Positions 5,831 through 56,721 of a stretch of DNA of 64,000 bases are shown in pieces. Origin of the DNA: Clavelina lepadiformis (lineage: Eukaryota); NCBI RefSeq assembly GCF_947623445.1, contig NC_135248.1, forward strand, positions 2,726,977 to 2,790,976. The letters run 5' to 3'. The translations under genes and the position numbers were made by a program. Under the pieces are notes generated by a model that worked only from the letters and a program-made list of their open reading frames with translations, had not been told where the DNA came from and did no database searches. The first letter of the stretch is position 1. Each line of letters starts with the position of its first letter.

Positions 5831-6811
5831 ATGAACACCACAGATATTATGTCACATTTAGCAACGGCGGATTATAAAACAGAAGATAAGACTTTCTACA
5901 CCTCCAGCGCTATTACTACAATAAAGACTCGGACCAGGATTAACTTTGCTCCAAGCACAAGTACGTCAACGGGAAGTGTGGCAACGAACAATGCTTCTCA
6001 GTTTTGGGCATCAGAAATTTTCTATGGAGGATCCCACGTTCTGCAAGGCATCGTAATTATACTTTTGGTCTTAACCGCTTATCTGGCCTGTGTGACGTCG
6101 TTTTATCTGTACAAGTACCAGCAGCCCAAGCTCAAGCTCTCCAACTTCCTGCTGTGTTTAGCATCGATTTTGCTATTTGCACAGTGCTGCTGGTTCCAGC
6201 CTGAAGTGGTTATTACCTCGTACACTTACCAGTTTTGCATCGCTTACTCAGTCGTAAACATCATTCTGGCAACGGTTGCCAAAACTACCATATACGTTAT
6301 CCTGTGGGTTAGACAGAATTTCATCTACACCAATCCATTGCTGACGCTTGTAGGGGAACACTTCCGCGTAGTTGGAAAGATAGTTCTTTTTGGAATGCTC
6401 ATTTTCGCCGCTTTCCAGTTGGGGTCACTGATTGCAATCGTGCCAAAGGCTGTTCCGGGTGGATGCATTTTACCAAAACTCTTTGGATGTTTGATCGTAA
6501 TTACACCTTTGACGTTTTGCATTTCTTCTGTTTTCCAAGTTGCCCTCCTGCTGTTAACACTGTACCCTGTTTTGAAGCACATTCGCAAACACAGTAAAAG
6601 CTCCATCGGTGCGCACCTGCGTCCGGTAGCTATCAGGCTATGCGTGTGTACAGGGATTTGCGTTGCCACAGACACGTTGTTTTTAGTTGGCACCAGGATA
6701 GCTTCATGGCGCGCTCCTATTAACTTTATACCGGTATGCTATGCCTTTGACATTGCCATTCACATCGCAGTAACTTTGTGTTCGTTTGTTGATTATCAAC
6801 GTCGCCTTTAG
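5831..6811 (+). CDS. Intronless 326-aa ORF encoding a predicted seven-transmembrane membrane protein (orphan GPCR-like)
   Basis: A 981-nt uninterrupted ATG-initiated ORF in ~34% GC DNA is very unlikely by chance. The translation has seven hydrophobic segments of 20-25 aa (e.g. IVIILLVLTAYLACVTSFYLY, FLLCLASILLFAQCCWF, IVLFGMLIFAAFQLGSLIAIV, LIVITPLTFCISSVFQVALLLLTLY). It has an N-terminal N-glycosylation-type site (NAS) and basic residues in the predicted loops. No canonical DRY or NPxxY motif was found, so the GPCR family assignment is open. Confidence 0.45.
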   Translation: MNTTDIMSHLATADYKTEDKTFYTSSAITTIKTRTRINFAPSTSTSTGSVATNNASQFWASEIFYGGSHVLQGIVIILLVLTAYLACVTSFYLYKYQQPKLKLSNFLLCLASILLFAQCCWFQPEVVITSYTYQFCIAYSVVNIILATVAKTTIYVILWVRQNFIYTNPLLTLVGEHFRVVGKIVLFGMLIFAAFQLGSLIAIVPKAVPGGCILPKLFGCLIVITPLTFCISSVFQVALLLLTLYPVLKHIRKHSKSSIGAHLRPVAIRLCVCTGICVATDTLFLVGTRIASWRAPINFIPVCYAFDIAIHIAVTLCSFVDYQRRL

Positions 6812-9160
6812 CCCTTTTGCAAATTCGAACCTCACAAAAACAACAATTCCAGTCTTGAAAATTCGTCCAAAGTATAGATTTTTAAGCATGGCTCAATATT
6901 TTGCTATGCGACTTGCAGTCTATATTTGTGAATGCATGTTTTGTTTTGTTTTGTGTTTTTGTAAATATGTGCATATACTGTTTACGTGTTTTACTGTAGA
7001 AAGAAATGTTCCGAAATGTAAAAGAAATAATATCGGCCTCACTTAGACCAGCCTTTTAAGCTGTAAGACGTCATAAAAAACTGTAATGCAAATGATAACA
7101 TGCTGCTGGTTTCTATGAAAATCGCCTTTCTATATTATTCGTTTCAGGGTTCACGATACTTCATGATTGTAAATTCCGAAGTTGCCATTTATTTTGTGTT
7201 AATCACACAAAAAATTTGTTTAAAATTTTTAGCTATTCCGTAGCTGGTTGGTCGTGCAAGTCTGAACGTTTAAAGACGAGCTTTCGGTGGAGTTCCTTGT
7301 CGAAGTTTTATCCAAAAAAGAAGAGTGAAGTTATGATTTGAAGAGTTTCAAAGTTTCTAAGCTGAGTTTGGAAGCGAAAAATTTATTTCGTCTCACTGTT
7401 AGTCAACGTTTGTTTTTCTCTGAGTTTTTCCATCAGATCCATTGCTTGTTCATTTTTGATGTAGGCTACCTACCTTTTGATGTAGGCTACCTCCGTGGAC
7501 GGTTGTAAATTAGGGCCGTTGGCTTCGTCTAACTGTAAAGAATGTAACGTGCACTTCCACTGATGGCTGTTTCAAAATTTTAAAAGGCAATGCTGGTTGT
7601 GTAGCTTAATTTAACTCTCTAGGCTACCTAATAAAAAACAAACGGCTACAAATTTGTCCTGATACGGCTTGCTTTTACTGCTTGAAATGAACCGGTTTAA
7701 TTTCAATTTGTATTTACAAATTTTATGACACACTGAGCTGCTATATGTAACTCTATCGATATCCATCCATACCGAGGCAGCAAATGGAGGTACGTAACGA
7801 CAATTTTTAACACGTTGGATGAATAACATTTGCCTCAACGTCATATCGGCATGTTAACTCTAAATTTTCACGATCTTCAATTTTTTGCTTTTATGTGCTG
7901 TATATACGTACATATAAGTTGATAGTTAATTTCAGACTTCGCCAGGGATAAGCAACACGTTTAGATAATGTTCTATACACGTGTAAAGTAAAAGTAGCTT
8001 TGATGGTCATGACGTGAAACTGCTTGTACAATATAATATCAACACCCCACTATCGAGTTGTTTACACGCATACCTTAGCTGTAGCCTATCGGGTTGTTGC
8101 ATAACGCAAGTTTGACTCGGTTTTACTAGCTTCATATTATGCTCACTGATGCATTCTACTTACTGTGCATGTAGCAACTAGCCAGCCATGTTTAATCACA
8201 TGCGCACTAATAAGTATATTTCATATATCTCCAAAGTTTGTATGTTTAAAAAAAGTAAAAAGGATCGCGTGCGCAATGTCTTGCACTTGAAAATGAAAGC
8301 AAGCGAACTAAAATATAAAATTAACTCTATCTACAAAAGGTAAGAAGCATCTCTCACGGCTGCAAGGTTAAAGACAACAGAGAAAAGGTTTGTCATAGAA
8401 ATTACAAACACTGCTACAGCAGACTCAAATTGGGTTCTTTACTACTAATGCGCATTTTGCCCTACACTACGATTCATTTACCGTTGCTAAATAACATTAA
8501 GCGATGGGTTTAGAACACAGAACAACAATTTGTGAGAGTGATAACTGATAAGTGAAAAAAATGGGCATTTCTACAGGGCGATGCATGATGTATTCGGTGT
8601 GTTTTTTTTAGAAAAAGCTTTAAAACTGTAATTATCACTGTCAATATAGAGAATGTGAATAGAGGTCGTTGCGTTAAATAAGCTTTAACAAAAAATAATA
8701 AACAATGAACAAAGTTCAAAAATTTCTTGGAGGATATGAAGTCACGCACTTTGTAATGGCCATAACCCATGGTGGTAGTTAAACTTAAAGCAGGTAATAT
8801 AAAAATAGAATATGTGGAACTAACCAGAGCGGTCTTAAACCAGTTCAATGCAGTAAACTGACTTATATAACCACGTCGAGTGGAAATGCGCGAAGGCTTA
8901 CAAGTGAACAACAACGATTTGTGTGGCGCGTGAAACAACGAAGGTCAAGTTTGGTTGTTTGTAATTTAATTAAACTGATATATATCAAAACCGTCAAGCT
9001 TATGTCGCAGATTACAAAATCCAACGTAAAGAAAATAATACAGAAAAAACAAGTTTAGACTGTGAAAGTATCAGAAGGTGTCGAAAGTTTCGCTTCTTTA
9101 ACTTGTAAAATCTTATTTTATTTGTAGAGAGTGGTCGTAAGAACTACCTTCTAGTGCAGC

Positions 9161-22677: not shown

Positions 22678-25197
22678 TTATACTACTGTTTTTCGAGCCT
22701 TAGCAAGCGCGAAATCTTCGATCATGTCAGTGCAGTCAAGGCTGCTCAGCACCTCATGTTCAATGCTCATAAGCGCCAGCATGTTTAGCCTTTCCTCCCT
22801 CATCGAAGACCGCAGCTCTCCTTTGACTATTCCCAGTTTTGAGAAGCTCCGCTCGCCGGAGGCATTAGACACCATCAAGCACAGATAGATGCGCAAAGCA
22901 ATCTCGACGTTTGGAAATGTTTGAGAAAGGTTCAACGACGACAAAAGCTTGTACATGGTAAGCTCTGCTGACTCGTTCACACTCACCGATTTCTGGGTGC
23001 GCATAAATGCAGCAAACTGTATGAGCTCAGCCACCAGCGTGTCTTCCAAGTCATCTGGATACGAGGAAACGAGATTTTGAGCTTTATTCTCGATCTGCTT
23101 TATGCTCAATGACGTTAGCTCCGAAAGAAATCCGAATGTTGTAGATATATCCTCATACGCCTTCATTCGCTTTTCCAGTTCAGCTAACAGTCTGTCGATC
23201 ATGACCAGATATATATGGGTTTTGAATGTTTCCCTAGGGGTGAGGTTTTCTTCGTTTGCAGCTCCTTCATCAGGCATTCGCTTTCGCTTACGGCCTCGAC
23301 GTTCTTCAGCCTTGTATTCGCCGTGAGGAACCTTTTCGATCGCCATCTGCTCATACACGTCAAATCTGTCCCGTGCAAATTGAATCGTGTCGACCAGTGA
23401 TGCCAATAAACTAGTTGCCGTATTCAGACTGACTGTAGGGTCTTGGAGGCTAATGCTCGTACTGTTGAGACGGCATAGGATATCGTTCCAGGCAGTCGCC
23501 ATAACTGCAGTCTCAAGTTCGTCCATCCTGCGCGAAAATCCGTCGGCCTGGTTTCTCGTATCGGCCTTCTGCTCCTTATCTGCCGCAAGCTCATCCAGGA
23601 CTTCTTGAATGCTCTTCCACCCTTCTACTAGCGCTTTGACAGCATCTGCACGTTCACACCATCGGGTTCCAGACAAACCTTTGAGCGTTAATGTGCAGCG
23701 ATTCTTCAGTTTCTGCCAGCGATATGTCGATTCAGACAGGAAAACGTATAGTCCATTGACAAAATGAAAAAACCTGGTACAGCCAGCGCAGCTATTAACA
23801 GCCTGGTCTCCTACCAGGTTTAAACTGTGGTTGCAGCATGGAATAAAAGCAGCATATTTACATTCTCGCTTCACAATTGCCTGGACACCGTTGTACCGTC
23901 CTGACATGTTTGACGCATTGTCATACGACTGGCCTCTGCAGTTAGTAACATCCAAGCCATTTTCCTTCAGAAAGTTCAGAAGTATGCTAGCCATGTGCGT
24001 AGCGGTGTGTCTCATCATAGGCAAGAATGTCAGGAACCGTTCAACTGGACCCAACGGCAGAACATATCGAATAACAATCGTTAGCTGGTCGAGGTGTGAT
24101 ACGTCAGGTGTAGAGTCAATCGAGACAGAGAAATACTTCGCCTTCTTGGCTTCTTTCAGGATGGTGTCCTGCACCTTTTGTCCCATGAGCTGCACCAGCT
24201 CCTCGCAAATTGTGGATGACAAATAAGAAATGTGACCTTTCCCGCAGTTCGCATATTTTCTAATATGGCTAGCCAGCAGAGTATCGTACTCCGCCAACAA
24301 CTCAATGATGCCAAGGTAGTTACCATTATGAGGGGAACCTATGATCTCATCCGCGCCCCTTATAGCAAGGCCACGCTTAGCTAGGAATATCAGAACGTCG
24401 ATGAGCCGCTTTACAATCTGGCGCCAGTAACACCGCTCTTCCTCGACCTGTTTAGCGGCTAGGTAGTCAACACGACCGGCCTCCCTCTGTCGGCTCGCAA
24501 AAGACAACATAGCCTTGCGATGACCATCGCTGCTTTCATGCATTTTTATTCTGGATTCGCCTGTCCTCCAATTGTCGAAACCGCCGGATACGAACTTGGT
24601 TGCTTGAACAGCATTACCACCGAACAACTTGCATGCAAAGCAGAACACCTTCCCGGTCGAAGGCGAGTAGCACAACCATTGTCTATAGGATTTTTCACCA
24701 TTGAGTGGATGCGTACGCACGAAGAAGGTCTTAGTGCATCGACGTTGGAATGATTCACCTAGGTATTGTCTGGCGCTCTCTTCAAACATCGATTCAGTGT
24801 GTTGGCAGTGTTTTGAACCTTTCTTGGCCCAATATTCTCGAGTGTCAGCGTTGATTTTACCCCACTGTCCTAAATCATTGGTGATATCCTCCAGCGTTTG
24901 CGCCAGTGCTTCGCCAGTGATAGCGTCTCCTTTCACCTCTGCTCTCTCCGCTGAACTTTCCCGCTCTTTATCCTCTCTTTCCTCATCAGGTTCATCTTGC
25001 TTGGCCTGGTCTTCAGGAGCGCTCGAATTCGCAATCGCATCCGACGCAGGCAATTGAGACGAAGCTGCTCGCATTCCAAAGTATGAACTCAGTTTTGGAA
25101 TTTTCGCCAGAAGCTTTTCTTGTTCTGCTGCTTCTTTCCTTTTCTTTTTCGCTTTATCCCATCCACTGAGTTGAGACGCCATAGCAAGCGTGCACAA
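22678..25197 (-). CDS. hAT transposase (ZMYM1-like: TTF-type zinc finger + DUF4371-like core + hAT C-terminal dimerisation domain), 839 aa, uninterrupted
   Basis: A single 2.5-kb intronless ORF. The TTF-type zinc finger region reads CTKTFFVRTHPLNGEKSYRQWLCYSPSTGKVFCFACKLFGG. The C-terminus (ALRIYLCLMVSNASGERSFSKLGIVKGELRSSMREERLNMLALMSIEHE) matches the hAT dimerisation domain consensus. Plus-strand ORFs inside it (23102..25057) are antisense artefacts. Confidence 0.85.
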   Translation of the reverse strand: MCTLAMASQLSGWDKAKKKRKEAAEQEKLLAKIPKLSSYFGMRAASSQLPASDAIANSSAPEDQAKQDEPDEEREDKERESSAERAEVKGDAITGEALAQTLEDITNDLGQWGKINADTREYWAKKGSKHCQHTESMFEESARQYLGESFQRRCTKTFFVRTHPLNGEKSYRQWLCYSPSTGKVFCFACKLFGGNAVQATKFVSGGFDNWRTGESRIKMHESSDGHRKAMLSFASRQREAGRVDYLAAKQVEEERCYWRQIVKRLIDVLIFLAKRGLAIRGADEIIGSPHNGNYLGIIELLAEYDTLLASHIRKYANCGKGHISYLSSTICEELVQLMGQKVQDTILKEAKKAKYFSVSIDSTPDVSHLDQLTIVIRYVLPLGPVERFLTFLPMMRHTATHMASILLNFLKENGLDVTNCRGQSYDNASNMSGRYNGVQAIVKRECKYAAFIPCCNHSLNLVGDQAVNSCAGCTRFFHFVNGLYVFLSESTYRWQKLKNRCTLTLKGLSGTRWCERADAVKALVEGWKSIQEVLDELAADKEQKADTRNQADGFSRRMDELETAVMATAWNDILCRLNSTSISLQDPTVSLNTATSLLASLVDTIQFARDRFDVYEQMAIEKVPHGEYKAEERRGRKRKRMPDEGAANEENLTPRETFKTHIYLVMIDRLLAELEKRMKAYEDISTTFGFLSELTSLSIKQIENKAQNLVSSYPDDLEDTLVAELIQFAAFMRTQKSVSVNESAELTMYKLLSSLNLSQTFPNVEIALRIYLCLMVSNASGERSFSKLGIVKGELRSSMREERLNMLALMSIEHEVLSSLDCTDMIEDFALAKARKTVV

Positions 25198-36250: not shown

Positions 36251-37625
36251 CTTGAAAAAAATTTGAACAGCGTTTTGTAGCGTGGCTAAACCTCATAAAC
36301 ATTGAAAATTTCTTGAAAACTTCAAAACACTATTAGTATTGAGTGATTCGGTGTCCACTAGAGGCCCACCATATAGTTCACACGGCTTAAACGTGTCTTT
36401 AATTTTGTTAAATGGACCGCAAAAAAGTAACTGACTATTTCACTCTCAGCCGAACTTGAAATAGGTCACGCAGTCAGTCTTCGAAGCTGCTTTGATTTTA
36501 CTGGGTATTTGATTTAGTCTAAAAAACATATATTGTTAGGGTTAGTTATCAACAGTATATGATAAAACATTGAAGTTTAGTTAACGTGAGGTATGGAAAA
36601 GTAATTATGAATGTACGATGTTTTCGTTGAAATAGCGACAGCTCAAAAATTAACACCAAAAGTAGTTGAAATTTCATGAATACATTATGATTGGAGAACT
36701 TCACTAATCACATGAACAAAGCTGATCCACTACAGAAAACAAAGTTTAATTATGTGAACTGTAATAAACAATTCTACAGTTTGCTACAGCCACTTAATTA
36801 TGAGAATTAGCTGCATAAGAATGAAAACTTTGTTCCGCTGGAAGACAGAACCTTTCTAGAAAGTGTACGTCATTGGCGGATTGTTGATCCGATAATCACC
36901 GCTTGAACCTACAAACATAATGGCTTGATTGAAGATATCGTTTACGCTATTTTGCATCTAAAGTTTCCAAGTTAAAAACGTATTATATTTTACAACAAAA
37001 ACTTAAGCCTATAATAGTAGATTACAAAATTTGATCAAAAATGTTGTCATATTGTTTACAAAAATATAACAAGCCAAAACCAGTTTGAAAGCTAACTTGT
37101 ACTTATATAACCTAGCAAGCTATAATCCAGTTTAAATAACAGATATAAACGTCAACCGAAAATGTATTCAATAAACCAAAACTTAAAACTGACAGTCTCA
37201 TAAACTTCAGCCATTTAGTCATAGCACAATTAACGAAAAGGAAAAAGTGGTAAAACTCGAACTTTTACAAACATGCAAGATGCCAACAATACAATTGTGC
37301 TACATCATATTAAGTTAAGACAAGCTAACAAGTTTGGACAAAATATACCACTATCATAAGCATGTTTATCGCTATCAAGAAAATACTGAATGTTCAACTC
37401 ACCAAACGTACCAGAACAAGCTTTCACTCAACTCTGAAAATATTGAACTGACCAAGCCAACGCACAAGTTCTTACAGCTGCGACCTTCTCAGCCACCGTC
37501 AAAATAAAATGACCACGAGTTTCTTTATTTGTTTGTGACGTCACCTGGCATTCGGCGCGGCGCGCGTTGATTAAAGTCTGGCTTCCTTCCAAAATTATCC
37601 GCGTAAAAAGCTGAGAGGTAATTTT

Positions 37626-40600
37626 GAGCTTAAACCATAGATATCCTATAAAACACTAGATCGCTCAACTCGCCTCTGGAATTGAAGCCAAATTGAAACT
37701 TTGCGAATCCGCCATTAAGGGACCCAGTCAGTCAGTCCCAACAGTGGTGCTGAATTGTGATGGAGTTGTATCGACAATTGTCTTGTTTCCAGTACGGTAT
37801 ATTTGTATAAATAGCCTAGTTCTAACGTTATACAGAACTTATACGGGCTAGGACTCTTTATACATCGTAGGATACGCCGATGCCGTATGTAGCCTGGACT
37901 ACCGTATATTTTGAAAATTCATAGCTTTAGCACGATATTATTTTAGAGATAGGCTACTGGAATAATCGGAGATGGGCATTGATACAGTACCTTCGTACAT
38001 TACTTTGTAATACCATGTTCCGAATCCCAGACAGGAATGTGTTACATTGTAAGCTATAGGCCTACCGTCAATACCGGATTTCTTTTAGTCGTCTCAACAG
38101 CTAGGCTATTCGCCATCGGTACTTTTATAGTGATAGTTTCAAGATTTTTAGAGATTTATGCCTAGGCTAGTTTTGGTTCTATGCCAGTACTTTCAAAGTC
38201 AAAGTATTGACTGCCCACATCTGGAAATATGTTCAGTTAACTGTAGTCTATAGGCCTAGTTTTCTATTGTGCCACACTTTAACTACAAATAAGAATCTGA
38301 TTTGTTGGACCCTATTGTAAAACGTGTAAAATTTGGTAAAAAAGGACATAAACATTTAGCCAAATTTATTTACATGTACAATTTTACAAAACAGAAGAGA
38401 TAAAACAAAACCATTCACTTATCACTATACTACATACATTACTATGTCAATGACTGACATTTGAAATTAAACAGTAACGAGTCATCCACTTGTCATTACT
38501 GATGGCTGAATAGTACAAGTTTGTTAAATTTTTTTCGTATCTTTTTGCAGGTAATTTCTTCATTGTACTCTTTTCCAAGGTGGTAAAGTCGAATTTTGCA
38601 GTATGCTTTTGAAACTAACTTTATAAGGTCAAAGATATGGTTGTTGGTGACACTTGTGTCTAACATATGATATTGAAGATTGCAGAATGCTAAGGATAGG
38701 TTGATATTAGCCAGAACAGATGTTGCAATACCTTCTGATACTCCTTTTTCTAAACCGACATAACAAATTCAAGGTATATATGATAATTATGCAACTAAGT
38801 TGTGTTTACATATATATCAGATAAATATAATAATCATCAGACAAATATAAATTATTTTGCTACATTTTACCTTGGGGAAGTTTTCCTCTTGTAGTTTTAA
38901 GAAGACGTTGAAACTGTTTTTCAGTTTCCTCGCAAACTACTACTACACTTTCGGAAGGTTTAAATAATTTGCCTTTATCTTTCATTTGCAGGAAGTCAGA
39001 CACTGGAAAATTGGTTGTTGAACCAAGAGCTTGACTACAGTGACTGCACAACATTTGCTTATCAACCATTTTGCTAACATAGCCAGCTACGTATGAAATG
39101 GCAGCTTTTTTGTATTCAGACAAACCAAGAATGTTTGGAATTTCACTGAGGCTATGATCTTCGTCGACTTCTACATCCCGTCCAAGTAGGTCATATTTTC
39201 TTATAATATGAGCACCTGATTCTGTCAGCTGAGGGTTACTAGTTGAAGCACCATTGAATATATGCAAAATTTCAATTGGTAACTTTTGTTCACAGTTACC
39301 AACTCCACCTTTAATATCACTTCTTAGAAGTAAGCGCTTATAAGCTGCTGTAAACTGCTGGCTTGTCGGGTTGTTGTTGAAACCTCCTGCTGACCTTATG
39401 GCTCCAAAAAACAACTCAAGGTGGTCTTGGCTAAGCTTGTAAGTTAAGATATATCTTAGTTGAGATTGATTTTTCCCAACTAAATCTTCAAACAACCCTT
39501 TTATACTTCTTATTGCCATCAAGAATCCCAGAAAGCCTGTTTTCCGTCTTGTTTTAAGCATTTGTACCCCAGCAGTGTCCTTCAACTTGAGAATGTAATC
39601 AAAAGAAAAATCAAGAAATGGCCTCCAGCTGGACTCATTGCTTCTTTTCAAAGGTGATTTGAATCCTTTAGCACATAGCACGCCGAACTTTGGAACTGTT
39701 GTAGTTTCAATGTGTTGCTGCAGTACTCAATGGCATCAGCTACACTTGCACTTATTGCTTGAGCTGCCAAGTTAACCTTCATTTTTTGTTGTTTCCAGTT
39801 TATATGGGCCAACTTAAGTTTGTTTGCAAGGCGTAACCCTTCTTCTTTTTGAAGTTTCTGCAGCTGAACCAAGTATTCCCATTTCACTTTCTTTCCTTCA
39901 AAATCTACAAGTATGCCACCTTCACCAAAGGTATTGCGTATAAGTTTAAGCATATGGCACACATCTAACAACATATATATTTTGGAATTTTCATCTGCAG
40001 GATGGTTAAAATAAGTTTGGAAGTTATCTATGTCTAAAGACAAACCAGGTTCATTCATCATAGCAAGATGACTGGAAGGAACTCACAGGAACTCACAGAA
40101 GAAACTACTACTCCTATATCATGGAGCCGCCCAATACAAACATTTACAAGGTTAGCTTTCTCTTTACCAGTCAGACTGTCAGTAAAAAAATAGCCACAAG
40201 GAATTTTCCATGAATTGTTTAACGAAACAACCATTAGCACTAAAGCATCTTTTGCAACAGGTGAGGAATCATCTGCTGGCATTTCCACACCAATATCAAC
40301 AAAACCTCGGAAACGATGGCCATCCCAAGAAACATGCTTCTTAATGGCCATTTCATCCAGCATTAAAGCACAAATTACCTGCTTGTTTTTCTTCTTCAAC
40401 TCTGGCTGAAAGTACTCTGAATGCAGGTTCTGTAAAACCAGGTTCAGCCGACACTTTGGTGTACCATTTTCTAATGGTTGATTGTGCTGGCAAAGCTAAG
40501 TTGAAGGTTTTTCTGACATACTCATATGCCTTGGAAGAGTAAAACTGAAGGGTTAGTGCAAATGCCTTCAATTCCGTGGAATACTTGCAACCTTTAGAGG

Positions 40601-42407
40601 AATGCAGTTGTTTTGCTGCTTTTTTCATGACATGCAGTGGCACACCTGTAAATGATGCCTTCAACACTTCTTCACAATTTGAAGATAGGAGTTGATTTTT
40701 ATGCAAACATTGAATTAAAGTTTTCATTGAAACTATTTTCTGTTTAAATATGCGTGACTTTTGCTGACTGAGTTTTAAATTTTTTCGAATTGCTGCAATT
40801 TGTTTGCTTCGTGACTGGATTTTCGTATTCAATTTAGTGAGTGAATTGCTTATGCTGTATGTATGGTCAGACTTTACTTTATCACAGGAGCTTCTTTTAA
40901 CAAGGCAATCACTTGTTTTATCTTTACTACCGGAACTGCATTGTAACTGCAAACCAGTTTTCATATTTCGTGTATATGGTTTCTTCCTTTCATGACCAGC
41001 CTGCAGTGAATCAATTCAAAGTATATATATTATATTATATATTATACTGCCAGTATATATATTAGTATATTATATCAGTGCCTGTATACTTGCCAGTATG
41101 TTATAGCCAATAATTTCCAATAATTAGTCTTGAGTCTGATGGAAATCTGTTGTACATATACTTGGTACTAAATATATGTTTTAATAAAAATATGTCATCG
41201 AATGCAGCTGAGACTGTTCGGGTGCACTTTTAGCTGAGGTAAGTTATTAGTTGAACGCCATGCCAATACACAACAGCTGCAATGTTAATGAGATGGTCAG
41301 AACTTACAGCTCATTAAATTGAACGACTGGTGCAAAGACACGATTAATTAATAATTCCTGTTGCACAAAAACACCTGCCGGTGCTACTACACTATTGCTC
41401 TTTACAACTCAGTTTTCAGCAACTAACCTGTAGCCTATATTCCTGGCATATAAAGGCTGTGGTTATCGCACCGCTGTAGTTGTTTAACATCTGCAGGTTT
41501 TAAAGTTTCATATGGGGGCCATTTTGCTGCTTGTGGTCTTGTTTTAGCAAGGTATAACAACATTAGCACCACTCTTTTCGAGGAATGTCCTGTCAATGGG
41601 CCACTGAGATATTTAATAAATAGACGACTTTGGAAAAAAATTGATCACTTATCAACTACTATGTTAGTAGTAAAAGAGTAGTTACTTTTGGCTACGTAGT
41701 TACTTTTGGCTGGATAGTAGTTACTTTTCATTATTGGTGATGGTTATGGTGAAGAGAGTTAGTTAGCTTGAAAAGGCACAATACAGCCAATATGCCTCTA
41801 AGAAGCATGAAGTTGAATAAGAGATACAGTTAGACTATAGACCGGAAACATATAGACATAAGTAGCATATTTAACACCTTAAGCAATGAGAAAAGAGCTT
41901 TCAGTTACAGGACTTTATGTCAGTGCCAGTATAGGCTAGGCTACGCTACAGTTTACATACGGTACCGGTATTAACGTTAAACCAAGAAAAACATTAGTTG
42001 TAGGTAATTATTATTATGCACAAAAAATGCTTACGCATGGAAGGTTCTTGGATGACAAATTTCCTTTCTTGTCTCATCATCCGAACTCCCTTCACTGGCA
42101 CTTCTTTCCATTAACTTATCGCTTACTGTAGCGCTATTAACTCTCTTTTTCCTTTTTCCACAACCGTAAGCACAGCATTGAGTTCCCCTTTTATCCATGT
42201 TTTATATAGATTACAAATTGACGAAGAAATCTCACAATTTAACGTTGGACCTAACAGCTTAAAAGCCTTATAAAATCGTGTTCAAAGCCCAGTTTGGGTC
42301 CCTTACTGTTCCCGCCAAATCTGTTCAATTGGCTTCATTTTTGGTTGGTCGAAAACAATAAGAAGAGCGATCTAGTGTTTTATAGGATATCTATGGCTTA
42401 AACCCGC
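37626..42407 (-). mobile_element. P-element/THAP9-like DNA transposon (~4.8 kb) bounded by ~110-bp terminal inverted repeats, with a frameshifted transposase
   Basis: 37629-37745 (cttaaaccatagatatcctataaaacactagatcgctc...) is the reverse complement of 42290-42404 (...gagcgatctagtgttttataggatatctatggcttaaac). Between them lies a P-transposase-like coding region split across four overlapping ORFs. Confidence 0.6.
38860..40964 (-). pseudogene. P-element (THAP9-type) transposase coding region, interrupted by at least three frameshifts
   Basis: Consecutive minus-strand ORFs 40353..40964, 40058..40399, 39648..40061 and 38860..39681 carry P-transposase family motifs: KYSTELKAFALTLQFYSSKAYEYVRKTFNLALPAQSTIRKW, LMLDEMAIKKHVSWDG..FRGFVDIG, WKIPCGYFF, and DVCHMLKLIRN (the D..H..K..RN motif). 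A 10-bp tandem duplication ggaactcaca|ggaactcaca at 40063-40082 sits exactly at one ORF junction. Confidence 0.65.
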
Positions 42408-46146: not shown

Positions 46147-46497
46147 CTGCAAAATGTGGAAAGATTTTCAGAAAGACGTTACCAAATAGTGTGCTAATTG
46201 TCATGATTAGCCCTTATTCCTACATAATTCTCGTGCAGAACTGATGATATTAGAATGTTATTTGTGCTCTATTTCGTGTGTTTATCAACTAGCGTTGTAC
46301 TATGTTTTGGCCGTGTTTAGTATGCGCGACCCAGTTTTAATTACTTCCGATTAATAAATATATCGCTATTGTACTAAATACATTGTTGATGTGGTTTCGA
46401 CAAGATTGCCAGTATACCAGCTACAGTGCGACAGTGTTCAAAACCACAACCAGTATTCTTTTGAGAAACTGAGTGAAGTCCAATAAAAATAACCTAC

Positions 46498-46720
46498 CCG
46501 GTAAACAGCGCACCCAAGATGCTTTCTTCTTGTGTTCATCGGAGCCACTTCGGTCCATCGATTTTCTTTTGGGTCGTAGCGTTCCACAAGATTCCACGGG
46601 GTCTGACCATCTGAGCCCCCGACAGCGTAAAGGTAGCTCCCTAAAACTGCCACACCAACCCCAAGCCTCTTGAAGCCCATTGAACACACCTTGCTCCATC
46701 GGTTTAACTTGGGGCTGTAT
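46498..46720 (-). CDS. KLHL20: KLHL20 exon 8: kelch repeats 4-5 ([74 protein letters not shown])
   Basis: Anchored on minus ORF 46438..46758. tttcag acceptor at 46721-46722 and CGG|GTAGGT donor at 46496-46497. Confidence 0.8.
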
Positions 46721-47093
46721 CTGAAATTAAGTAACATAACTCGGATGTAGTTTGGCAAATATAAAATACTTCAGGTGACAACATTTAAGTGATTATAAAT
46801 AATAAAGTATGAGAACTGTACAAGTACAAAGTAAAAACATAACCGCCAAGACAAAAACGATATGCTGAATGGTTTTATGTCTTCTTGCTCCTCTAGTGTT
46901 GTCTTTGTGGTATGCTTTTGTATAGCTTTTTATCAAGTTTTAAAAGCGATTGCCTTTAGGACGGTGTGCGCAAACACTAAAGACGAGTCATGATTATTCG
47001 CCACGCAGCACACAAAAGAAAAAATGAGATACAGACTTTAGTTCACAAACCTAAGACTAATAAGTTAAAGCGCACATTTTTTTAAGCACACAC

Positions 47094-47237
47094 CTTTCCA
47101 CTATGTCAAGGCATGACATGCCATCCTGACCGCCAACCGCATACAGGAAACCATCCAAAACAGCCACACCAACACTGGTTCGACATGTACTGGTTGGTGT
47201 CACATCACATGACCACTGGTTTGTTTGTGGATCATAC
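47094..47237 (-). CDS. KLHL20: KLHL20 exon 7: kelch repeat 3 ([47 protein letters not shown])
   Basis: Anchored on minus ORF 47057..47263. tatttag acceptor at 47238-47239 and AG|GTGTGT donor at 47092-47093. Confidence 0.8.
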
Positions 47238-47809
47238 CTAAATACGAAAAATGTGGTAAGCACATGAAGTTAACATCTATGGCATCTTTCACCATCCAGC
47301 TGAACTAATCTTAAACAACTTATTGTTTGTTGTTGTCACCATGTTACTGAAGCATTAAGTGTACTTCACCTATCAGCTTTTAATTATCACACTGCATCAG
47401 TGGCCAAATTTAACTGTAACACATAATTTTTCCATTTGTTTTATTATTATTTGCATGTTGGGTTTAGTGGCCGTGCTAACCATTGATCGCCTTTATGTTG
47501 TGTTAACATCATTCTTGCACGTTTTAAGCCCTTGGGCTTGGCTGCTTTTTCCCGTCATTGTCTGCTGGCTGAATTGTGATTTTTCTACGTGATAATGTTT
47601 AGCATTTCATTTCCCGTTCCCCGATTGACAATGAAAAAAGATAAACGATAAGATATGATTTACTGTAGAGAAATCGTAGTGTATTTAAAATGTTTTCCTC
47701 TATTGCTATCACCTTTGGCATAGAGCATTATGTCTAATGTTAGTTAGTGGTGGGGGAAGAAAGTACTTTAAATGTAATCTCTGGCAAGAATAGACTGTTC
47801 CTGTGATAC

Positions 47810-47987
47810 CTCTCAACACTATTCAGATAAGATGTTCCATCATGGCCACCAACTGCGTAGAGTAAATCATCCAGAACAGAGACACCCACACCACAACGAC
47901 GTTTGTTCATTTGAGCCACCAAACGCCACTCCCTATTTTCAGGGCAGTATCTTTCAACCGAGCTAATTGCGTCGCCGCTGCACCAAC
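47810..47987 (-). CDS. KLHL20: KLHL20 exon 6: kelch repeat 2 ([58 protein letters not shown])
   Basis: Anchored on minus ORF 47740..48018. atgcag acceptor at 47988-47989 and AG|GTATCA donor at 47808-47809. Near-identical to human residues [58 protein letters not shown]. Confidence 0.85.
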
Positions 47988-48061
47988 CTGCATAGAAATA
48001 ACAACAACTGTACTCCATAAAACTGGTTCGGGGAGGTTCGAACAGACTTGAAGTGGTTTAC

Positions 48062-48275
48062 CTCCAACTGCAAACAAGACCTCCCTTGTGATTGGTCTTC
48101 TTGGTCTTGTACGTGGCCCTTGCATGAGTGGGCGTTCCTGAGGAAGCAACATGTAATTCTTTGCTTCATCCACAAGATCGCGACACTGTTCATCATTGTG
48201 AATAAACGGGTCACTGTCAACAACTCCAACAAGAAACTTAGGGGTGAGTAGAGGCAAACGGACATGCTGTAACAC
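48062..48275 (-). CDS. KLHL20: KLHL20 exon 5: BACK domain end and kelch repeat 1 start ([72 protein letters not shown])
   Basis: Anchored on minus ORF 47907..48275. ttgtaacag acceptor at 48276-48277 and G|GTAAAC donor at 48060-48061. Confidence 0.85.
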
Positions 48276-48344
48276 CTGTTACAATATGTAGGTTTACTTA
48301 TAAGTTGCTTTAAAGGCAGGTACGATGGGTGACTACTAACTCGC

Positions 48345-48503
48345 CTTCGGTAGTATGGGGCGTCTGTCTTTCAGATCATGCTTCATCCAGGCAATAACTG
48401 CTTTGTAAACATGCTCTTCAGAACGCACATTTAAGTCATCTGAGCTTAAAATTTCAATCAACTGGTCCACTGGCAGTAGTCGAAACTCTTCACTCTCCTT
48501 TAC
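48345..48503 (-). CDS. KLHL20: KLHL20 exon 4: BACK domain ([53 protein letters not shown])
   Basis: Anchored on minus ORF 48336..48578. tgtgcag acceptor at 48504-48505. The only splice site compatible with the reading frame before the in-frame stop is AAG|GCGAGT at 48343-48344, a GC-AG intron. Confidence 0.75.
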
Positions 48504-48726
48504 CTGCACATGCAGAACATCAACGCAGTGATTGTTTCTATAAGATAAGTTATACACAGCATATCCAGTTTCATACACTGTGGTATAAATTGTGGTGTAG
48601 GAAATGGAGAAATTGTGTACTTAACCTATTGATATTTGCAGCAAACAATAAACAATAACAGCTTACAAATATACATCATAGCAAACACAAACATCTACAG
48701 CACATGAAAAAAAGAAAGCGTTTAAC

Positions 48727-48860
48727 CTCCTGAAAGTTGGCTTGGGTGAATTTGTCGGCAACTTTAAGTAGTTCCTTGCATGAGTGGGTGTCAGCAAAAG
48801 CCCGTATCCCCAAGCAATTTGTGGGGTCAAGTTGACGCTTGAGAAACTCACTACAGATCT
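48727..48860 (-). CDS. KLHL20: KLHL20 exon 3: [45 protein letters not shown]
   Basis: ttaag acceptor at 48861-48862 and GAG|GTTAAA donor at 48725-48726. Human: [45 protein letters not shown]. Confidence 0.8.
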
Positions 48861-49096
48861 CTTAACAAACAAATCAATCACTGAAAAACCAGTTTCTTGT
48901 CTAATATGTCATTGAGCACTAATTAAAAACATTAGCAACTAAAATATATGATATATGGAATGCAACTGGAGTATTGACATCTCATGGCAGAATGTAGAAG
49001 AACTACACTACACAAAATCATAAATTAAACAAGAATTACTTTTCATGACACATTACAGGCTACTGCAATAGATTTTGCTCGAAGTCTTCAGCCTAC

Positions 49097-49277
49097 CTTG
49101 TATTTCCATCATTTGCAGTAAGCAAGCGGCAGGCAAGAGTGACTGTACGTTGCTCTCCTCAACGGTAATTTGTGAGGTGTATGCAAAATCGACGAGTAGT
49201 TCCATCGCCCTCTCTTCAATGTTATGAATTGCTATTTCTGTCTGATGCACCTCAGCTAATTCGACAGTAAACATCGC
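49097..49277 (-). CDS. KLHL20: KLHL20 exon 2: BTB domain ([60 protein letters not shown])
   Basis: Anchored on minus ORF 49053..49274. tttttag acceptor at 49278-49279 and G|GTAGGC donor at 49095-49096. Confidence 0.85.
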
Positions 49278-49646
49278 CTAAAAACAAAACTGACTATTCC
49301 GAAAAACTTCACACAAAATTATGAGAAAGAGCAATGTAGTTCATTAACTCTAATTGGGATGATAACAGCCAAAGATCATTGTTAAGACCAAAGATCATAG
49401 AATATTGTAAAAATCAGTAGAGTATAAACTACAGCGGTAAATGGACATAATGAACAACAAATTGTAGCGCTTCCCACTCATTCCGCTAGATAACAGCACG
49501 ACACAATGTTTACTTGCCGAAAAAGTTTGTGTGTTTTCTTTCGTTTCCCTTTAAGATTTTACAGACCTGTTCTAGATAATTACATTGCGTAAAAACAGTT
49601 TTTCATGCCGGAAGCACTTAAACAAAGAAAAAATAAAAAGACTCAC

Positions 49647-49898
49647 ATGAAAATAAGGAGAAGCAGCAGCAAGCACAACTCTATGAGCATACAGCTTCGT
49701 ATTACCAATCACCAAAACCACGTCCCAAAGAAGCTCCCTTTTGCGAAGAACATTTAACGATTCCAGCATCCGGCGTGGATGTTTCTCGGATGCATGGAAC
49801 ATGGAGGAAGGATGGGAATTGTTGCTGCTCGAGGATGTCTTATTGCATGCCGAAGTGATGTCAATTGACATTGGAGTTCCATGATCCGCATACATCAT
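49647..49898 (-). CDS. KLHL20: KLHL20 exon 1: start codon and BTB domain start (MMYADHGTPMSIDITSACNKTSSSSNNSHPSSMFHASEKHPRRMLESLNVLRKRELLWDVVLVIGNTKLYAHRVVLAAASPYFH)
   Basis: ATG at 49896-49898 (minus) and CAT|GTGAGT donor at 49641-49646. Human: [45 protein letters not shown]. Confidence 0.8.
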
Positions 49899-50499
49899 AG
49901 TCGCAATACAAAGTAGTGGACGTGCACCTTACCATCAATATTAGAGCTATGCTGAAACGTTCCAAACGCACCAATCAGTAGGCTATATACCTGTTGAAAA
50001 AAAAAAACAACTTTTTTGCATGCTAAACGAAATAGTAAGAACACGAGTAATAGATAAGTGAGAATACGGCAGAAAAAATGTGAAAAAGCAGAAAAAATGC
50101 GAAAAAGCAGAAAAAATGTTTACAAAATGTGAAACATATGTAATTACCGTCAGGAAGCACAAAAGGCAATTAATGCAATATTATCAGTTAGCTAAAGTTA
50201 AGGAAAAACTTATTAATCCAGAAATAAGGAAAGAATATCAATATCTCTTTTGGTTAGATCTTTCAAAGTTGTTGCAAGAATGTCGTCTGAATAGTAGTAG
50301 TTGAAAACACATATCATATAAACATAATAAAACTGTCATTACTAGAGTATACTGATGTACCTAGCAAGAAATTTTTAGGCATTAGTAAAGTGGATGATGA
50401 CTCTTATATGAACAGATGCAGTCATGAAATACTTACAGTACCTACCCAGGGTAGCAAAGCCTTAATATTTAGCATGATAAATAACAAAATTTGAAAGGT

Positions 50500-51435
50500 C
50501 TAACAAAAGTCCTTCTCTCTAAGACGATCAATATGTGCACAGAGTTTTAACGCGGGACCAAGCGGAAAATTCATGGAGCTTACTAAATGCTCCTCATGCA
50601 AAAGCAATAAAGCAGAACCATCAATTTCTTGGGCTCGAAAATCTGCTGCATATTGAACAGCATCGGGAAGAGAACGCATGTAATTCCACACATCATCAAC
50701 AGACCACTGTCCCGGTTGAACGGGCTTGCCACCAAGATACGGAACAGTTGGTTCTGGGGATGGAGTTGGACTGTAACTGAAAACTGATGCACTATCGCTG
50801 CTACTGAACTTGTCATCATCAGAAAACGAATTGCTGCCAGACAGGCTCTGTGAAGATGAAAGTACATCCTCTTCCTTTTTAGCTACATAGCTAGGTCTGC
50901 CACGACGTGGCTTGTTTGATAACGATGATAGATTCCTGATTCTGGACTTGCCTCTCCTTGAAACATGATTGTTTTGCCATAGTTTATTGTATGAATGCAC
51001 TCCACCTGTAATACGGGTCTTGTATTTACGAGCACACTTAAGTGAGCAAAACTGCTGACTTGGGCTTGAAAACTTTACTCGAGGTCCAGAGAAGCCACAT
51101 TGCTCGCAGGTGGCAACTGCCACCTCAATATTGTCTTGATTGTCAACATTCATTTTTTCGTCATCTTCTGACTTCATGTCCTTTTCTCGTTGCAAAATTT
51201 CTTGTTGCCTTTTTCTGATCAAGGACAGCTGATGATTGGACAAACCACAGTTTCTGGTTGGTGTAAATGGTGTCAGAGATTCTTCAAAGACAAACCCATC
51301 GATTATATGAGTAATTATATGCTGTTTAACTTCAGGAATCCTTTTGTTGTTATTTTCCGCGTTATCTTGAATTTGGTATGCATCGTTATCGTTGACATTG
51401 TCTACTTGGGACACTGAAGTAAGAGTTGTTTCCAT
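50500..51435 (-). CDS. Intronless 311-aa protein with an FCS-type zinc finger and C-terminal SAM domain (polyhomeotic / Scm-like Polycomb-group architecture)
   Basis: ATG-initiated 936-nt ORF. CEQCGFSGPRVKFSSPSQQFCSLKCARKY fits the FCS zinc finger (C-x2-C...C-x3-C with FCS...CA). The C-terminus (WSVDDVWNYMRSLPDAVQYAADFRAQEIDGSALLLLHEEHLVSSMNFPLGPALKLCAHIDRL) has the SAM-domain hydrophobic pattern including the GxALLLL core. Ser-rich low-complexity linker. Confidence 0.65.
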   Translation of the reverse strand: METTLTSVSQVDNVNDNDAYQIQDNAENNNKRIPEVKQHIITHIIDGFVFEESLTPFTPTRNCGLSNHQLSLIRKRQQEILQREKDMKSEDDEKMNVDNQDNIEVAVATCEQCGFSGPRVKFSSPSQQFCSLKCARKYKTRITGGVHSYNKLWQNNHVSRRGKSRIRNLSSLSNKPRRGRPSYVAKKEEDVLSSSQSLSGSNSFSDDDKFSSSDSASVFSYSPTPSPEPTVPYLGGKPVQPGQWSVDDVWNYMRSLPDAVQYAADFRAQEIDGSALLLLHEEHLVSSMNFPLGPALKLCAHIDRLREKDFC

Positions 51436-56276: not shown

Positions 56277-56564
56277 ATGTACGATGCATATCATACACTT
56301 TGCTTTCAAGGTTACCCACCACCAGGTTATGGCTCACCCCAACAAGGTGGTTACCCACCACCACAGCAAGGTTACGGTCAACCCCAAGTGGGTTTCGCTC
56401 CCCAGCAGGGGGGATATCCCCCACCACAGGGAGGCTACCCTCCGCCACAAGGTGGTTATGCTCCTCAGCCAGGTTACGGAGGCGCTCCACCCCAGCAACA
56501 ACAGCAGTGGATGCCGCAACCTCAGATACCTGGCTGTCCAAGAGGATTGGAATATTTGTCCCAG
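56277..56564 (+). CDS. PLSCR: Phospholipid scramblase first coding exon: Pro/Gln/Gly/Tyr-rich N-terminus ending ...PGCPRGLEYLSQ
   Basis: ATG at 56277 with an in-frame TGA immediately upstream. Contains PQQGGYPPP-type repeats. CPRGLEYLSQ matches PLSCR1 CPPGLEYLSQ. CAG|GTTACA donor at 56565. A tgctttcaag at 56301-56310 could alternatively be an acceptor, so the true start may lie upstream. Confidence 0.65.
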
Positions 56565-56721
56565 GTTACATTTGCTAAATCTAGTAGCCATGTTGGACTA
56601 CAAGTATTTAATATATTGTCTTTTAGCATGTGGCATTAAACAGTGTTTAATTGTATATTTGTTGAAAATAAATAGAACTGTTGCAATACCTATATGCCGG
56701 TGAATATTATTCTTCTTTTCA

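Follow-up and report, generated by a model that had tools for sequence, protein, structure and literature searches.

Four consecutive open reading frames (ORFs) on a minus strand, lying between inverted repeats and carrying motifs of a P-type transposase, raise the question of whether the locus is a transposon or a host gene derived from one, and whether it is still functional. A sequence-only reading had proposed a P-element/THAP9-like transposon that has been inactivated. We analyzed the locus within its window, that is, the whole 64-kb stretch of DNA, most likely from the ascidian Clavelina lepadiformis. With high confidence, we assign positions 37636–42395 to a single, defective cut-and-paste DNA transposon of the P superfamily (P element/THAP9-type).

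Perfect 31-bp ends and an 8-bp target duplication bound the element

The element spans 4760 bp, with the transposase gene on the minus strand (Table 1) and CATAGATATCC.../...GGATATCTATG as its termini. The terminal inverted repeat (TIR) 31-mer, CATAGATATCCTATAAAACACTAGATCGCTC, occurs exactly twice in the 64 kb with 0 mismatches (0 occurrences expected by chance), and in the single copy examined these 31/31 perfect TIRs lie at the element boundaries, abutting the target-site duplication (TSD). The two copies of the TSD, GCTTAAAC, agree at 8/8 positions, for which the chance at a fixed position is ~4^-8; a TSD of 8 bp is the criterion for the P superfamily, across which the length varies from 7 to 9 bp. 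The ends had been read as ~110-bp TIRs, exceeding the 31 bp of Drosophila P, and as reverse complements over the outer ~40 bp (cttaaaccatag...). However, 7 bp of that stretch belong to the TSD, and the perfect TIR is exactly 31 bp, after which come subterminal repeats.

Table 1 Features of the Clavelina element (window coordinates)
Feature	Position	Strand	Basis
Left TSD copy, GCTTAAAC	37628–37635	.	Identical 8/8 to 42396–42403; adjoins left TIR
Left 31-bp TIR, 3′ end of element relative to transposase gene	37636–37666	+	31/31 complementary to 42365–42395
Left subterminal inverted block AATTGAAGCCAAATTGAA, 13 bp inside TIR	37680–37697	+	Aligns with 42324–42340 (reverse complement), 1 mismatch and 1 gap
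Left 11-bp subterminal inverted repeat TAAGGGACCCA, starts 80 nt from end	37716–37726	+	Exact inverted match to 42295–42305
Last exon, C-terminal domain and stop codon	38496–38749	-	tblastn, P0006 residues 843–925, 54% identity; acceptor AG 38751–38750
121-nt intron, GTAAAA...TTTAG	38750–38870	-	Homolog alignment breaks at KLPQ/.../KGVSEG
Main transposase exon (linker, HTH, RNase H N-half, GTP-binding insertion domain, RNase H C-half, part of C-terminal domain), split into four ORFs	38871–41000	-	Pfam, tblastn, 6P5A alignment
Lesion 3, ~19–23 codons deleted plus frameshift; conserved G-x-EATVKFIRLFDRLFDILNSRNP segment gone	39674–39689	-	Homolog alignment, Pfam GBD
Lesion 2, perfect 10-bp tandem repeat at second catalytic Asp site, net frame change	40077–40098	-	TRF: period 10, 2.2 copies, 100% matches
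Lesion 1, frameshift in A/G-rich run including A5 homopolymer, just upstream of LMLDEMAI	40380–40396	-	Frame change between ...ARVEE and KNKQVICALMLDEM vs homologs
Exon 2 remnant: finishes ...FHA, encodes FPSD..., then stop codon and AT-rich sequence	41101–41146	-	Acceptor AG 41148–41147; exon 1 donor in phase
Intron 1, GTAAGC...ACAG	41147–42034	-	Donor/acceptor from sequence
Exon 1, start codon and N-terminal part of THAP zinc finger (C-x2-C ... FH)	42035–42198	-	tblastn vs P0006 residues 1–50, 50% identity
Right 11-bp subterminal inverted repeat, starts 90 nt from end	42295–42305	-	Exact reverse complement of 37716–37726
Right subterminal inverted block, 24 bp inside TIR	42324–42340	-	Pairs with 37680–37697
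Right 31-bp TIR, 5′ end of element relative to gene	42365–42395	-	31/31 pairing with 37636–37666
Right TSD copy, GCTTAAAC	42396–42403	.	Direct repeat of 37628–37635; adjoins right TIR

That the ends remain similar further inward, as had been noticed, is correct insofar as two significant inverted blocks reach to 37726 and 42295, but unrelated spacer comes first and the similarity is not continuous. The outer block, roughly 17 bp long, is a candidate transposase-binding site (37680–37697 on the left) and its distances from the two TIRs (13 vs 24 bp) differ by about one helical turn. Local alignment of the subterminal regions scored 18, compared with a mean of 8.8 and a maximum of 16 for shuffled sequences (0/1000 shuffles reached 18), and an exact inverted match of at least 11 nt, as in the 11-bp repeat, arose in only 2 of 1000 shuffles. 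These inverted blocks, weaker than the TIRs, extend to ~90–100 bp from each end.

The interrupted ORFs encode a P-superfamily transposase

The four slightly overlapping ORFs (40353–40964, 40058–40399, 39648–40061, and 38860–39681) contain all of the motifs initially listed for them, namely STIRKW, DEMAIKK, GFVDIG, GYFF, and LDVCHMLKLIRN. We compared their stitched translation with Pfam, the check that had been suggested for the concatenated ORFs, and obtained four domains with E-values of 1e-21 to 1e-42, far above the cut-offs: the Tnp_P_element HTH (PF12017, 2.4e-24), the TNP-like RNaseH_N (PF21787, 4.5e-42), the GBD (PF21788, 1.7e-31), and the RNaseH_C (PF21789, 8.6e-21). It also matched the structure of the Drosophila P transposase, 6P5A (6.7e-30), and 399 relatives at E<=1e-10, the best of which are invertebrate THAP9/P transposases with 55–60% identity. 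These domains, relatives, and structural match bear out the P-element/THAP9-like identity. Splice sites were read from the sequence together with the homolog alignment; they give introns at 42034–41147 and 38870–38750, and a further junction is possible at 41100–41001. At the 3′ side of the main exon, the acceptor of the last exon is in phase with the upstream donor, and removal of the 121-nt intron restores ...KLPQ-E-KGVSEG, where the homolog has KLPRIKGIPGA.

The closest proteins belong to unnamed invertebrate P/THAP9-like families (P0001–P0005 and locus L002), which share the 55–60% identity over >90% of their length and are multi-copy, with full-length and truncated members. L002, at 57% amino-acid identity, has an intact, uninterrupted 789-aa ORF, TIRs, and an 8-bp TSD, GGCACAGC; this combination indicates that the members of this clade are real transposons and that their target stagger is the same. 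Like the Clavelina element, L002 has TIRs beginning with CA and an 8-bp TSD, but its TIRs are ~400 bp long and its ORF is uninterrupted; the TIRs of the Clavelina copy measure 31 bp, and its gene has a 3′ intron and carries multiple lesions.

The named relatives carry the label THAP9 or THAP domain-containing protein 9, with annotations such as ‘DNA transposase THAP9’, and human THAP9, a domesticated P transposase, belongs to the same protein family and has the same domain set. THAP9 genes have also been reported in Ciona (PMC7776569). The locus could accordingly be regarded not as a transposon but as a THAP9-like gene domesticated by the host, or as a pseudogene of one, which we consider extremely improbable. 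Human THAP9 is a maintained gene, described as having neither TIRs nor internally deleted copies (PMC7776569), and a domesticated gene is not expected to keep a TSD. A domesticated THAP9 would present an intact, conserved ORF free of TIRs and TSD; in contrast, the Clavelina locus has transposon ends (perfect 31-bp TIRs, subterminal repeats, and the 8-bp TSD) around a decayed coding sequence that has not been maintained and carries at least four ORF lesions.

A probable THAP start lies in separate upstream exons and is truncated

A THAP zinc finger had been reported as lacking upstream of the ORFs. Contrary to that report, its start appears to be encoded in separate upstream exons, though the domain is cut off after the N-terminal third. 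Exon 1 (42198–42035) spliced to 41146 encodes MDKRGTQCCAYGC...RTFHA/FPSD, and the product aligns to the P0006 N-terminus through FPSD/FPLD. In BLASTP, this spliced N-terminus shares 52% identity (E 8e-18) with the corresponding end of a homolog, an end that scores 62 bits on Pfam THAP; the Clavelina sequence itself matches only profile positions 1–29 of 87 and, with 12.4 bits, does not reach the cut-off of 23.9.

The C-x2-H half of the THAP domain was not detectable by Pfam or local alignment upstream of the main exon, and no coding similarity was detected inside intron 1 (41147–42034). Two candidates for this half, LAKTRPQAAKW...RCDNHS (41596–41438) and VVKSNSVVAPAGVF (41408–41307), were rejected: when locally aligned to four homologous THAP C-halves they scored no better than shuffles, and Pfam gave no match either. 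Intron 1 also holds an 18-bp tandem repeat at 41677–41728.

Several lesions disable the transposase gene

Alignment with 33 homologs placed three lesions in the main exon (Table 1); the loss of the THAP domain after its N-terminal third is the fourth. Inactivation of the copy, as first proposed, is borne out by these several lesions. Lesion 3 falls where the GTP-binding domain meets the RNase H C-half: the G-x-EATVKFIRLFDRLFDILNSRNP segment found in 33/33 aligned homologs is missing, and the Pfam GBD match ends at profile position 89 of 119. The ~20-codon loss and the small 3′ intron were both absent from the sequence-only reading.

In the Drosophila transposase, the catalytic triad D-D-E is formed by D230, D303, and E531 (PMC7776569). 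In the 6P5A alignment, D230 and E531 fall on a conserved D and E, and the Clavelina sequence has both the first catalytic Asp motif (LMLDEMAI) and the Glu (SQDHLELFF). D303 falls on the 10-bp-repeat lesion, where the residue is Glu or out of frame, leaving the triad incomplete; all 33 homologs have [CF]-D-G-P at this position. The missing second catalytic Asp makes it unlikely that this copy is active, but does not speak against its P-superfamily ancestry.

The 10-bp tandem duplication noted at the ORF2/ORF3 junction is real and perfect, but lies at 40077–40098 (exact 20-mer 40078–40097), not at 40063–40082. It is perfect over 22 nt, which is unlikely by chance, and no other perfect tandem duplication of period 8–15 in the 64-kb window is as long; the window holds 6 perfect tandem tracts of this period range compared with 0–3 in Markov simulations. 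Since it also sits exactly at the change of reading frame relative to the homologs, the duplication could be the primary inactivating lesion in an element that was intact there beforehand. We consider this unlikely. Ten is the wrong number of bases: removal of one copy, which had been suggested as a check, does not restore the frame but gives ...VSSFQSSCYDE-stop, and this pre-duplication sequence still lacks the [CF]-D-G codons invariant in 33/33 homologs, so that an extra deletion of ~8 nt would be needed. Alternatively, TGT-GAT-GGT-CC (Cys-Asp-Gly-Pro) may have decayed into the second ‘copy’, TGTGAGTTCC, as one inserted base and one substitution restore both frame and motif.

Are the frameshifts genuine? 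One of them lies in an A5 homopolymer (40386–40390), a typical place for sequencing errors, and could be an assembly error, and the ends and TSD are perfect, as in a young element. The gene might on these grounds be functional and the element autonomous, with the frameshifts representing assembly errors or being bypassed by unrecognized introns. This is very improbable, as single-base errors do not account for the loss of ~20 conserved codons, of the Asp-Gly motif, and of two-thirds of the THAP domain, the ORFs overlap and have no intron-like spacers between them, and the same region is one uninterrupted ORF in intact relatives. The other three lesions cannot be assembly errors, and the defective Clavelina copy is demonstrably unable to make a working transposase.

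Insertion, mobility, and surroundings

The steps of transposition are modeled on the Drosophila system. The transposase of an intact relative, comprising THAP, coiled coil, HTH, an RNase H fold split by a GTP-binding insertion, and a C-terminal domain, would bind the subterminal sites, pair the two 31-bp TIRs, and excise the element. Reinsertion with an 8-bp stagger would duplicate the target, which would account for GCTTAAAC on both sides. The TSD, both TIRs, and the subterminal repeats have all stayed intact, so the element probably inserted fairly recently. In principle, the copy could be mobilized in trans by an autonomous relative, if any exists.

We found no further copies in the 64-kb window (TIR search, <=3 mismatches) or in metagenome contigs (28-nt TIR pattern). 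Exact-protein look-ups of two ORFs gave no match, and a comparison of the ORF2+ORF3 segment with a protein collection revealed no fragment above 67% identity. Elsewhere in the window, polyhomeotic-like protein 3 of Clavelina lepadiformis matches an ORF at 50500–51435 with 100% identity, which supports the host assignment. A quick scan for TIRs around the neighboring hAT-like ORF yielded nothing convincing, and no Rfam family reached the threshold in a scan of the whole window.

Discussion

The Clavelina element is an ordinary though neatly preserved P-type transposon copy. It shares with the 2.9-kb P element of Drosophila melanogaster the perfect 31-bp TIRs, an 11-bp subterminal inverted repeat, the 8-bp TSD, a multi-exon transposase gene, and the domain order HTH, RNase H N-half, GTP-binding insertion, and RNase H C-half. 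On the other hand, its end sequences (CATAGATATCC...) are unrelated, the proteins are only distantly related (107 bits vs 6P5A), and this copy is dead. At 4.76 kb it is also longer, its 3′ non-coding region is long, and its THAP domain is split by a first intron of ~0.9 kb, whereas the THAP domain of the Drosophila P gene lies within the first exon. The zebrafish Pdre/THAP9 transposon differs in the dimensions of its ends: its TIRs measure 13 bp and its subterminal repeats 12 bp, with spacers of ~400 bp, compared with 31-bp TIRs in the Clavelina element and 11-bp repeats ~50–60 bp inside them. P-like elements of another tunicate, Ciona intestinalis, have been described (Kimbacher et al. 2009, as cited in PMC3698922) and are similar in being P-superfamily transposons in an ascidian genome, within the same host subphylum; no named match from Ciona was among the best 120 of the 399 relatives.

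P-like elements are documented already in Ciona, zebrafish, and many invertebrates, and the locus opens no new biological question. Its practical value is in annotation: the exact boundaries, TSD, exon structure, and lesions can seed a repeat-library entry for Clavelina lepadiformis. A consensus from other copies, if intact, could be tried as an ascidian transposon tool.

The element adds one more data point for P elements with Drosophila-like ends in deuterostome invertebrates. The transposase-binding sites of Drosophila P lie 9 and 21 bp from the TIRs (PMC7776569), and the conserved block of the Clavelina element likewise lies at unequal distances, 13 and 24 bp. By analogy, the end architecture that this tunicate element shares with Drosophila P, namely a 31-bp TIR, an asymmetric ~17-bp block, and an 11-bp repeat, may reflect functional conservation, a tentative proposal to which we assign a low probability. 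If the block is a THAP-binding site, bilaterian P elements would have inherited a ‘12/23-like’ asymmetric pairing rule from their ancestor, and the rule would not be specific to Drosophila.

Results

Termini of the element

The 31-mer CATAGATATCCTATAAAACACTAGATCGCTC has exactly two matches in the 64-kb window, with 0 mismatches and none expected by chance, and these perfect copies (31/31 at both ends) form the terminal inverted repeats (TIRs) of a P-superfamily transposon, bearing out the inverted repeat that the sequence-only reading had seen bounding the region. The octamer GCTTAAAC abuts both TIRs on the outside in direct orientation (37628-37635 and 42396-42403), which supplies the 8-bp target-site duplication (TSD) anticipated there. 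Since this octamer is nearly palindromic, the inverted repeat appeared to run on past 31 bp, with the arms of a repeat finder reaching 46 nt at 89%; the end proposed earlier, cttaaaccatag..., thus took in 7 bp of the TSD. The element proper spans 37636-42395 (4760 bp) and, with both TIRs and the TSD still perfect, was probably inserted fairly recently.

TIRs of ~110 bp, longer than the 31 bp of Drosophila, had been proposed; the layout is instead a 31-bp TIR plus subterminal repeats. The ends show no relation to each other over the first 13 nt (left) and 24 nt (right) inside the TIRs, and two inverted subterminal blocks account for the similarity further inward that had been correctly noticed. 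Local alignment of the inner ends scored 18, where shuffles averaged 8.8 and peaked at 16 (0/1000 as high), and an exact 11-mer match arose in 2/1000 shuffles.

Features of the element, its L002 relative and the neighbouring gene
Feature	Position	Strand	Remarks
Left TIR CATAGATATCCTATAAAACACTAGATCGCTC	37636-37666	+	perfect 31-mer match
Right TIR CATAGATATCCTATAAAACACTAGATCGCTC	42365-42395	-	perfect 31-mer match
Inverted block AATTGAAGCCAAATTGAA	37680-37697		pairs with 42324-42340
Exact 11-mer TAAGGGACCCA	37716-37726		pairs inverted with 42295-42305
Exon 1	42198-42035	-	MDKRGTQCCAYGCGKRKK...RTFH, then GTAAGC donor
Intron 1	42034 to acceptor 41148-41147	-	splice-site reading
Exon-2 remnant, short	from 41146	-	finishes ...FHA/FPSD
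Large exon	41000-38871	-	tblastn
Intron, 121 nt	38870-38750	-	splice-site reading
Last exon	38749-38496	-	tblastn
Tnp_P_element HTH	stitched translation		Pfam, E 2.4e-24
TNP-like RNase H N-terminal	stitched translation		Pfam, E 4.5e-42
TNP-like GTP-binding insertion domain	stitched translation		Pfam, E 1.7e-31
TNP-like RNase H C-terminal	stitched translation		Pfam, E 8.6e-21
P0002 element	L002 2507-8897		~400-bp TIRs starting CACTGATC; perfect 8-bp TSD GGCACAGC
BTB/BACK/Kelch (KLHL-type) gene	~46400-49900	-	exons recognised
BTB exon	49572-49898	-
Kelch motif	46438-46758	-
Further Kelch-like ORFs	47057-47263 and 47740-48018	-

Transposase gene and THAP domain

All four overlapping ORFs described on the minus strand are present, as are the P-transposase motifs listed earlier, and the stitched translation of these ORFs matches four Pfam families, in agreement with the ORFs searched singly. 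In the protein collection, 399 relatives passed E<=1e-10, and the closest share 55-60% identity over >90% of the length; those with a name are 'DNA transposase THAP9' (Nymphon striatum), 'THAP domain-containing 9' (Paramuricea clavata) and proteins from Patella and hagfish. The sole solved structure matched was that of the Drosophila P element transposase, 6P5A (6.7e-30).

We modelled the gene by tblastn with the Nymphon homolog (P0006) and by reading splice sites from the sequence. The spliced N-terminus resembles that of P0006 (52% identity, BLASTP 8e-18), a segment to which the Pfam THAP profile gives 62 bits. Thus a THAP zinc finger, thought to be missing upstream, begins in exon 1 and the exon-2 remnant. 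In the element, Pfam covers profile positions 1-29 of 87 (12.4 bits, under the cut-off), and beyond FPSD the remnant's frame meets a stop codon and AT-rich sequence; judging by this frame, the THAP domain of this copy is truncated. Candidate THAP C-x2-H halves elsewhere in intron 1 were rejected, as they scored no better than shuffles. At 41107-41125 the remnant overlaps a 10-bp tandem repeat that is near-complete (1.9 copies of CCAATAATTT), so the Trp codon seen in it may be an artefact that duplication produced. Intron 1 also contains an 18-bp tandem repeat (2.7 copies, 41677-41728).

Lesions in the large exon

Alignment of the locus with 33 homologs and 6P5A placed three lesions in the large exon, besides the THAP truncation. 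Lesion (a) is a frameshift at ~40380-40396, in an A/G-rich run with an A5 homopolymer directly before LMLDEMAI, whose Asp aligns with catalytic D230 of the D230/D303/E531 triad of Drosophila P transposase (PMC7776569). Lesion (b) is a perfect 10-bp tandem repeat (2.2 copies, 40077-40098); the duplication had been recognised, with coordinates 15 bp off. Here 33/33 homologs read S-[LV]-x-[CF]-D-G-P-S-C-H, the Asp of [CF]-D-G-P aligning with D303. In this copy the conserved Gly-to-Pro stretch measures 35 nt vs 33, the Asp position is Glu and the frame is lost. Deleting one 10-bp unit, the repair suggested previously, fails: it yields ...VSSFQSSCYDE and a stop, with Cys-Asp-Gly still absent. A one-base insertion or two-base deletion restores the frame. 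The lesion may have arisen either by an ~8-nt deletion before the duplication or through the second unit being a decayed TGT-GAT-GGT-CC. Lesion (c) is a deletion at ~39674-39689 that removes the conserved G-x-EATVKFIRLFDRLFDILNSRNP, about 19-23 codons, and changes the frame, because of which the Pfam match to the GTP-binding domain breaks off at position 89 of 119. The last member of the triad, E531, has an intact counterpart here in the Glu of SQDHLELFF.

Sequencing error could plausibly explain lesion (a) only. On this sequence, the three lesions and the truncated THAP leave a copy that is unable to encode a transposase, in keeping with the inactivation first proposed.

Related transposons

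The protein families nearest to the element have multiple copies, some of them full-length and some truncated. P0002 (57% amino-acid identity) is an uninterrupted 789-aa ORF on a 161-kb contig (L002); with its ~400-bp TIRs and 8-bp TSD, the L002 element is probably autonomous. It has an internal 121-nt inverted repeat (7785-7905 and 8337-8457). A further relative, at L003, has its weak THAP match in an ORF of its own, upstream of the main one. The multi-copy families and the L002 ends support the view that the clade is made up of genuine transposons, which have an 8-bp target stagger and differ widely in TIR length.

Neighbourhood of the insertion

The element lies ~4 kb past the last identified Kelch exon, in sequence without recognisable coding potential. 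A CRE-like palindrome, TGACGTCA, stands beside GC-rich GGCGCGGCGCGCG at 37535-37575, ~55-95 bp upstream of the insertion site, and may be a host promoter; Drosophila P elements prefer to insert near promoters (PMC7776569). A single-exon 311-aa ORF (50500-51435, minus strand) matches 'polyhomeotic-like protein 3 [Clavelina lepadiformis]', encoded on a 15.7-Mb contig, at 100% identity, the next-best matches being other ascidians (48-53%). By this one match, the window most likely comes from that colonial sea squirt.

Elsewhere in the window, an intact 839-aa ORF (22678-25197, minus strand) resembles hAT-type transposases (Pfam DUF4371 4e-17, hAT dimerisation domain 2e-09) and lies in a GC-richer patch (0.44-0.455 vs ~0.36 nearby); a Logan contig of 4960 bp from run ERR771006 encodes an identical product of 834 aa. 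As no convincing TIRs flanked the ORF in a quick scan, it could be either a hAT element that is active or a ZBED/FAM200-like gene that has been domesticated. A 326-aa ORF (5831-6811, plus strand; no Pfam match at E<=0.001) has several long hydrophobic stretches and by eye resembles a multi-pass membrane protein. The Pro/Gly/Gln-rich ORF at 56277-56639 (plus strand), with repeated GGYPPPQ units and no Pfam match, is probably a host-gene exon.

Discussion

The element has the homologous transposase, 8-bp TSD and TIRs of the P superfamily; a complete THAP domain and full D-D-E triad are missing because the copy has degenerated. Ciona, zebrafish and many invertebrates are known to carry P-like elements, the tunicate Ciona being covered by Kimbacher et al. 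2009, as cited in PMC3698922. Drosophila P has the same 31-bp TIR, 11-bp subterminal repeat and 8-bp TSD, an exact agreement that is a pleasant detail and no discovery. Its transposase-binding sites are asymmetrically spaced (9/21 bp), and the unequal spacing of the conserved internal block here (13 vs 24 bp) bears a resemblance to this, no more.

By analogy with Drosophila (PMC7776569), the THAP domain of an intact member would bind subterminal sites and the HTH domain would contact the inner TIR; the two ends would then be paired in a GTP-dependent manner, the element excised and reintegrated with an 8-bp stagger. A TIR search of the window and metagenome contigs found no autonomous partner. 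If one exists, the element could be moved in trans.
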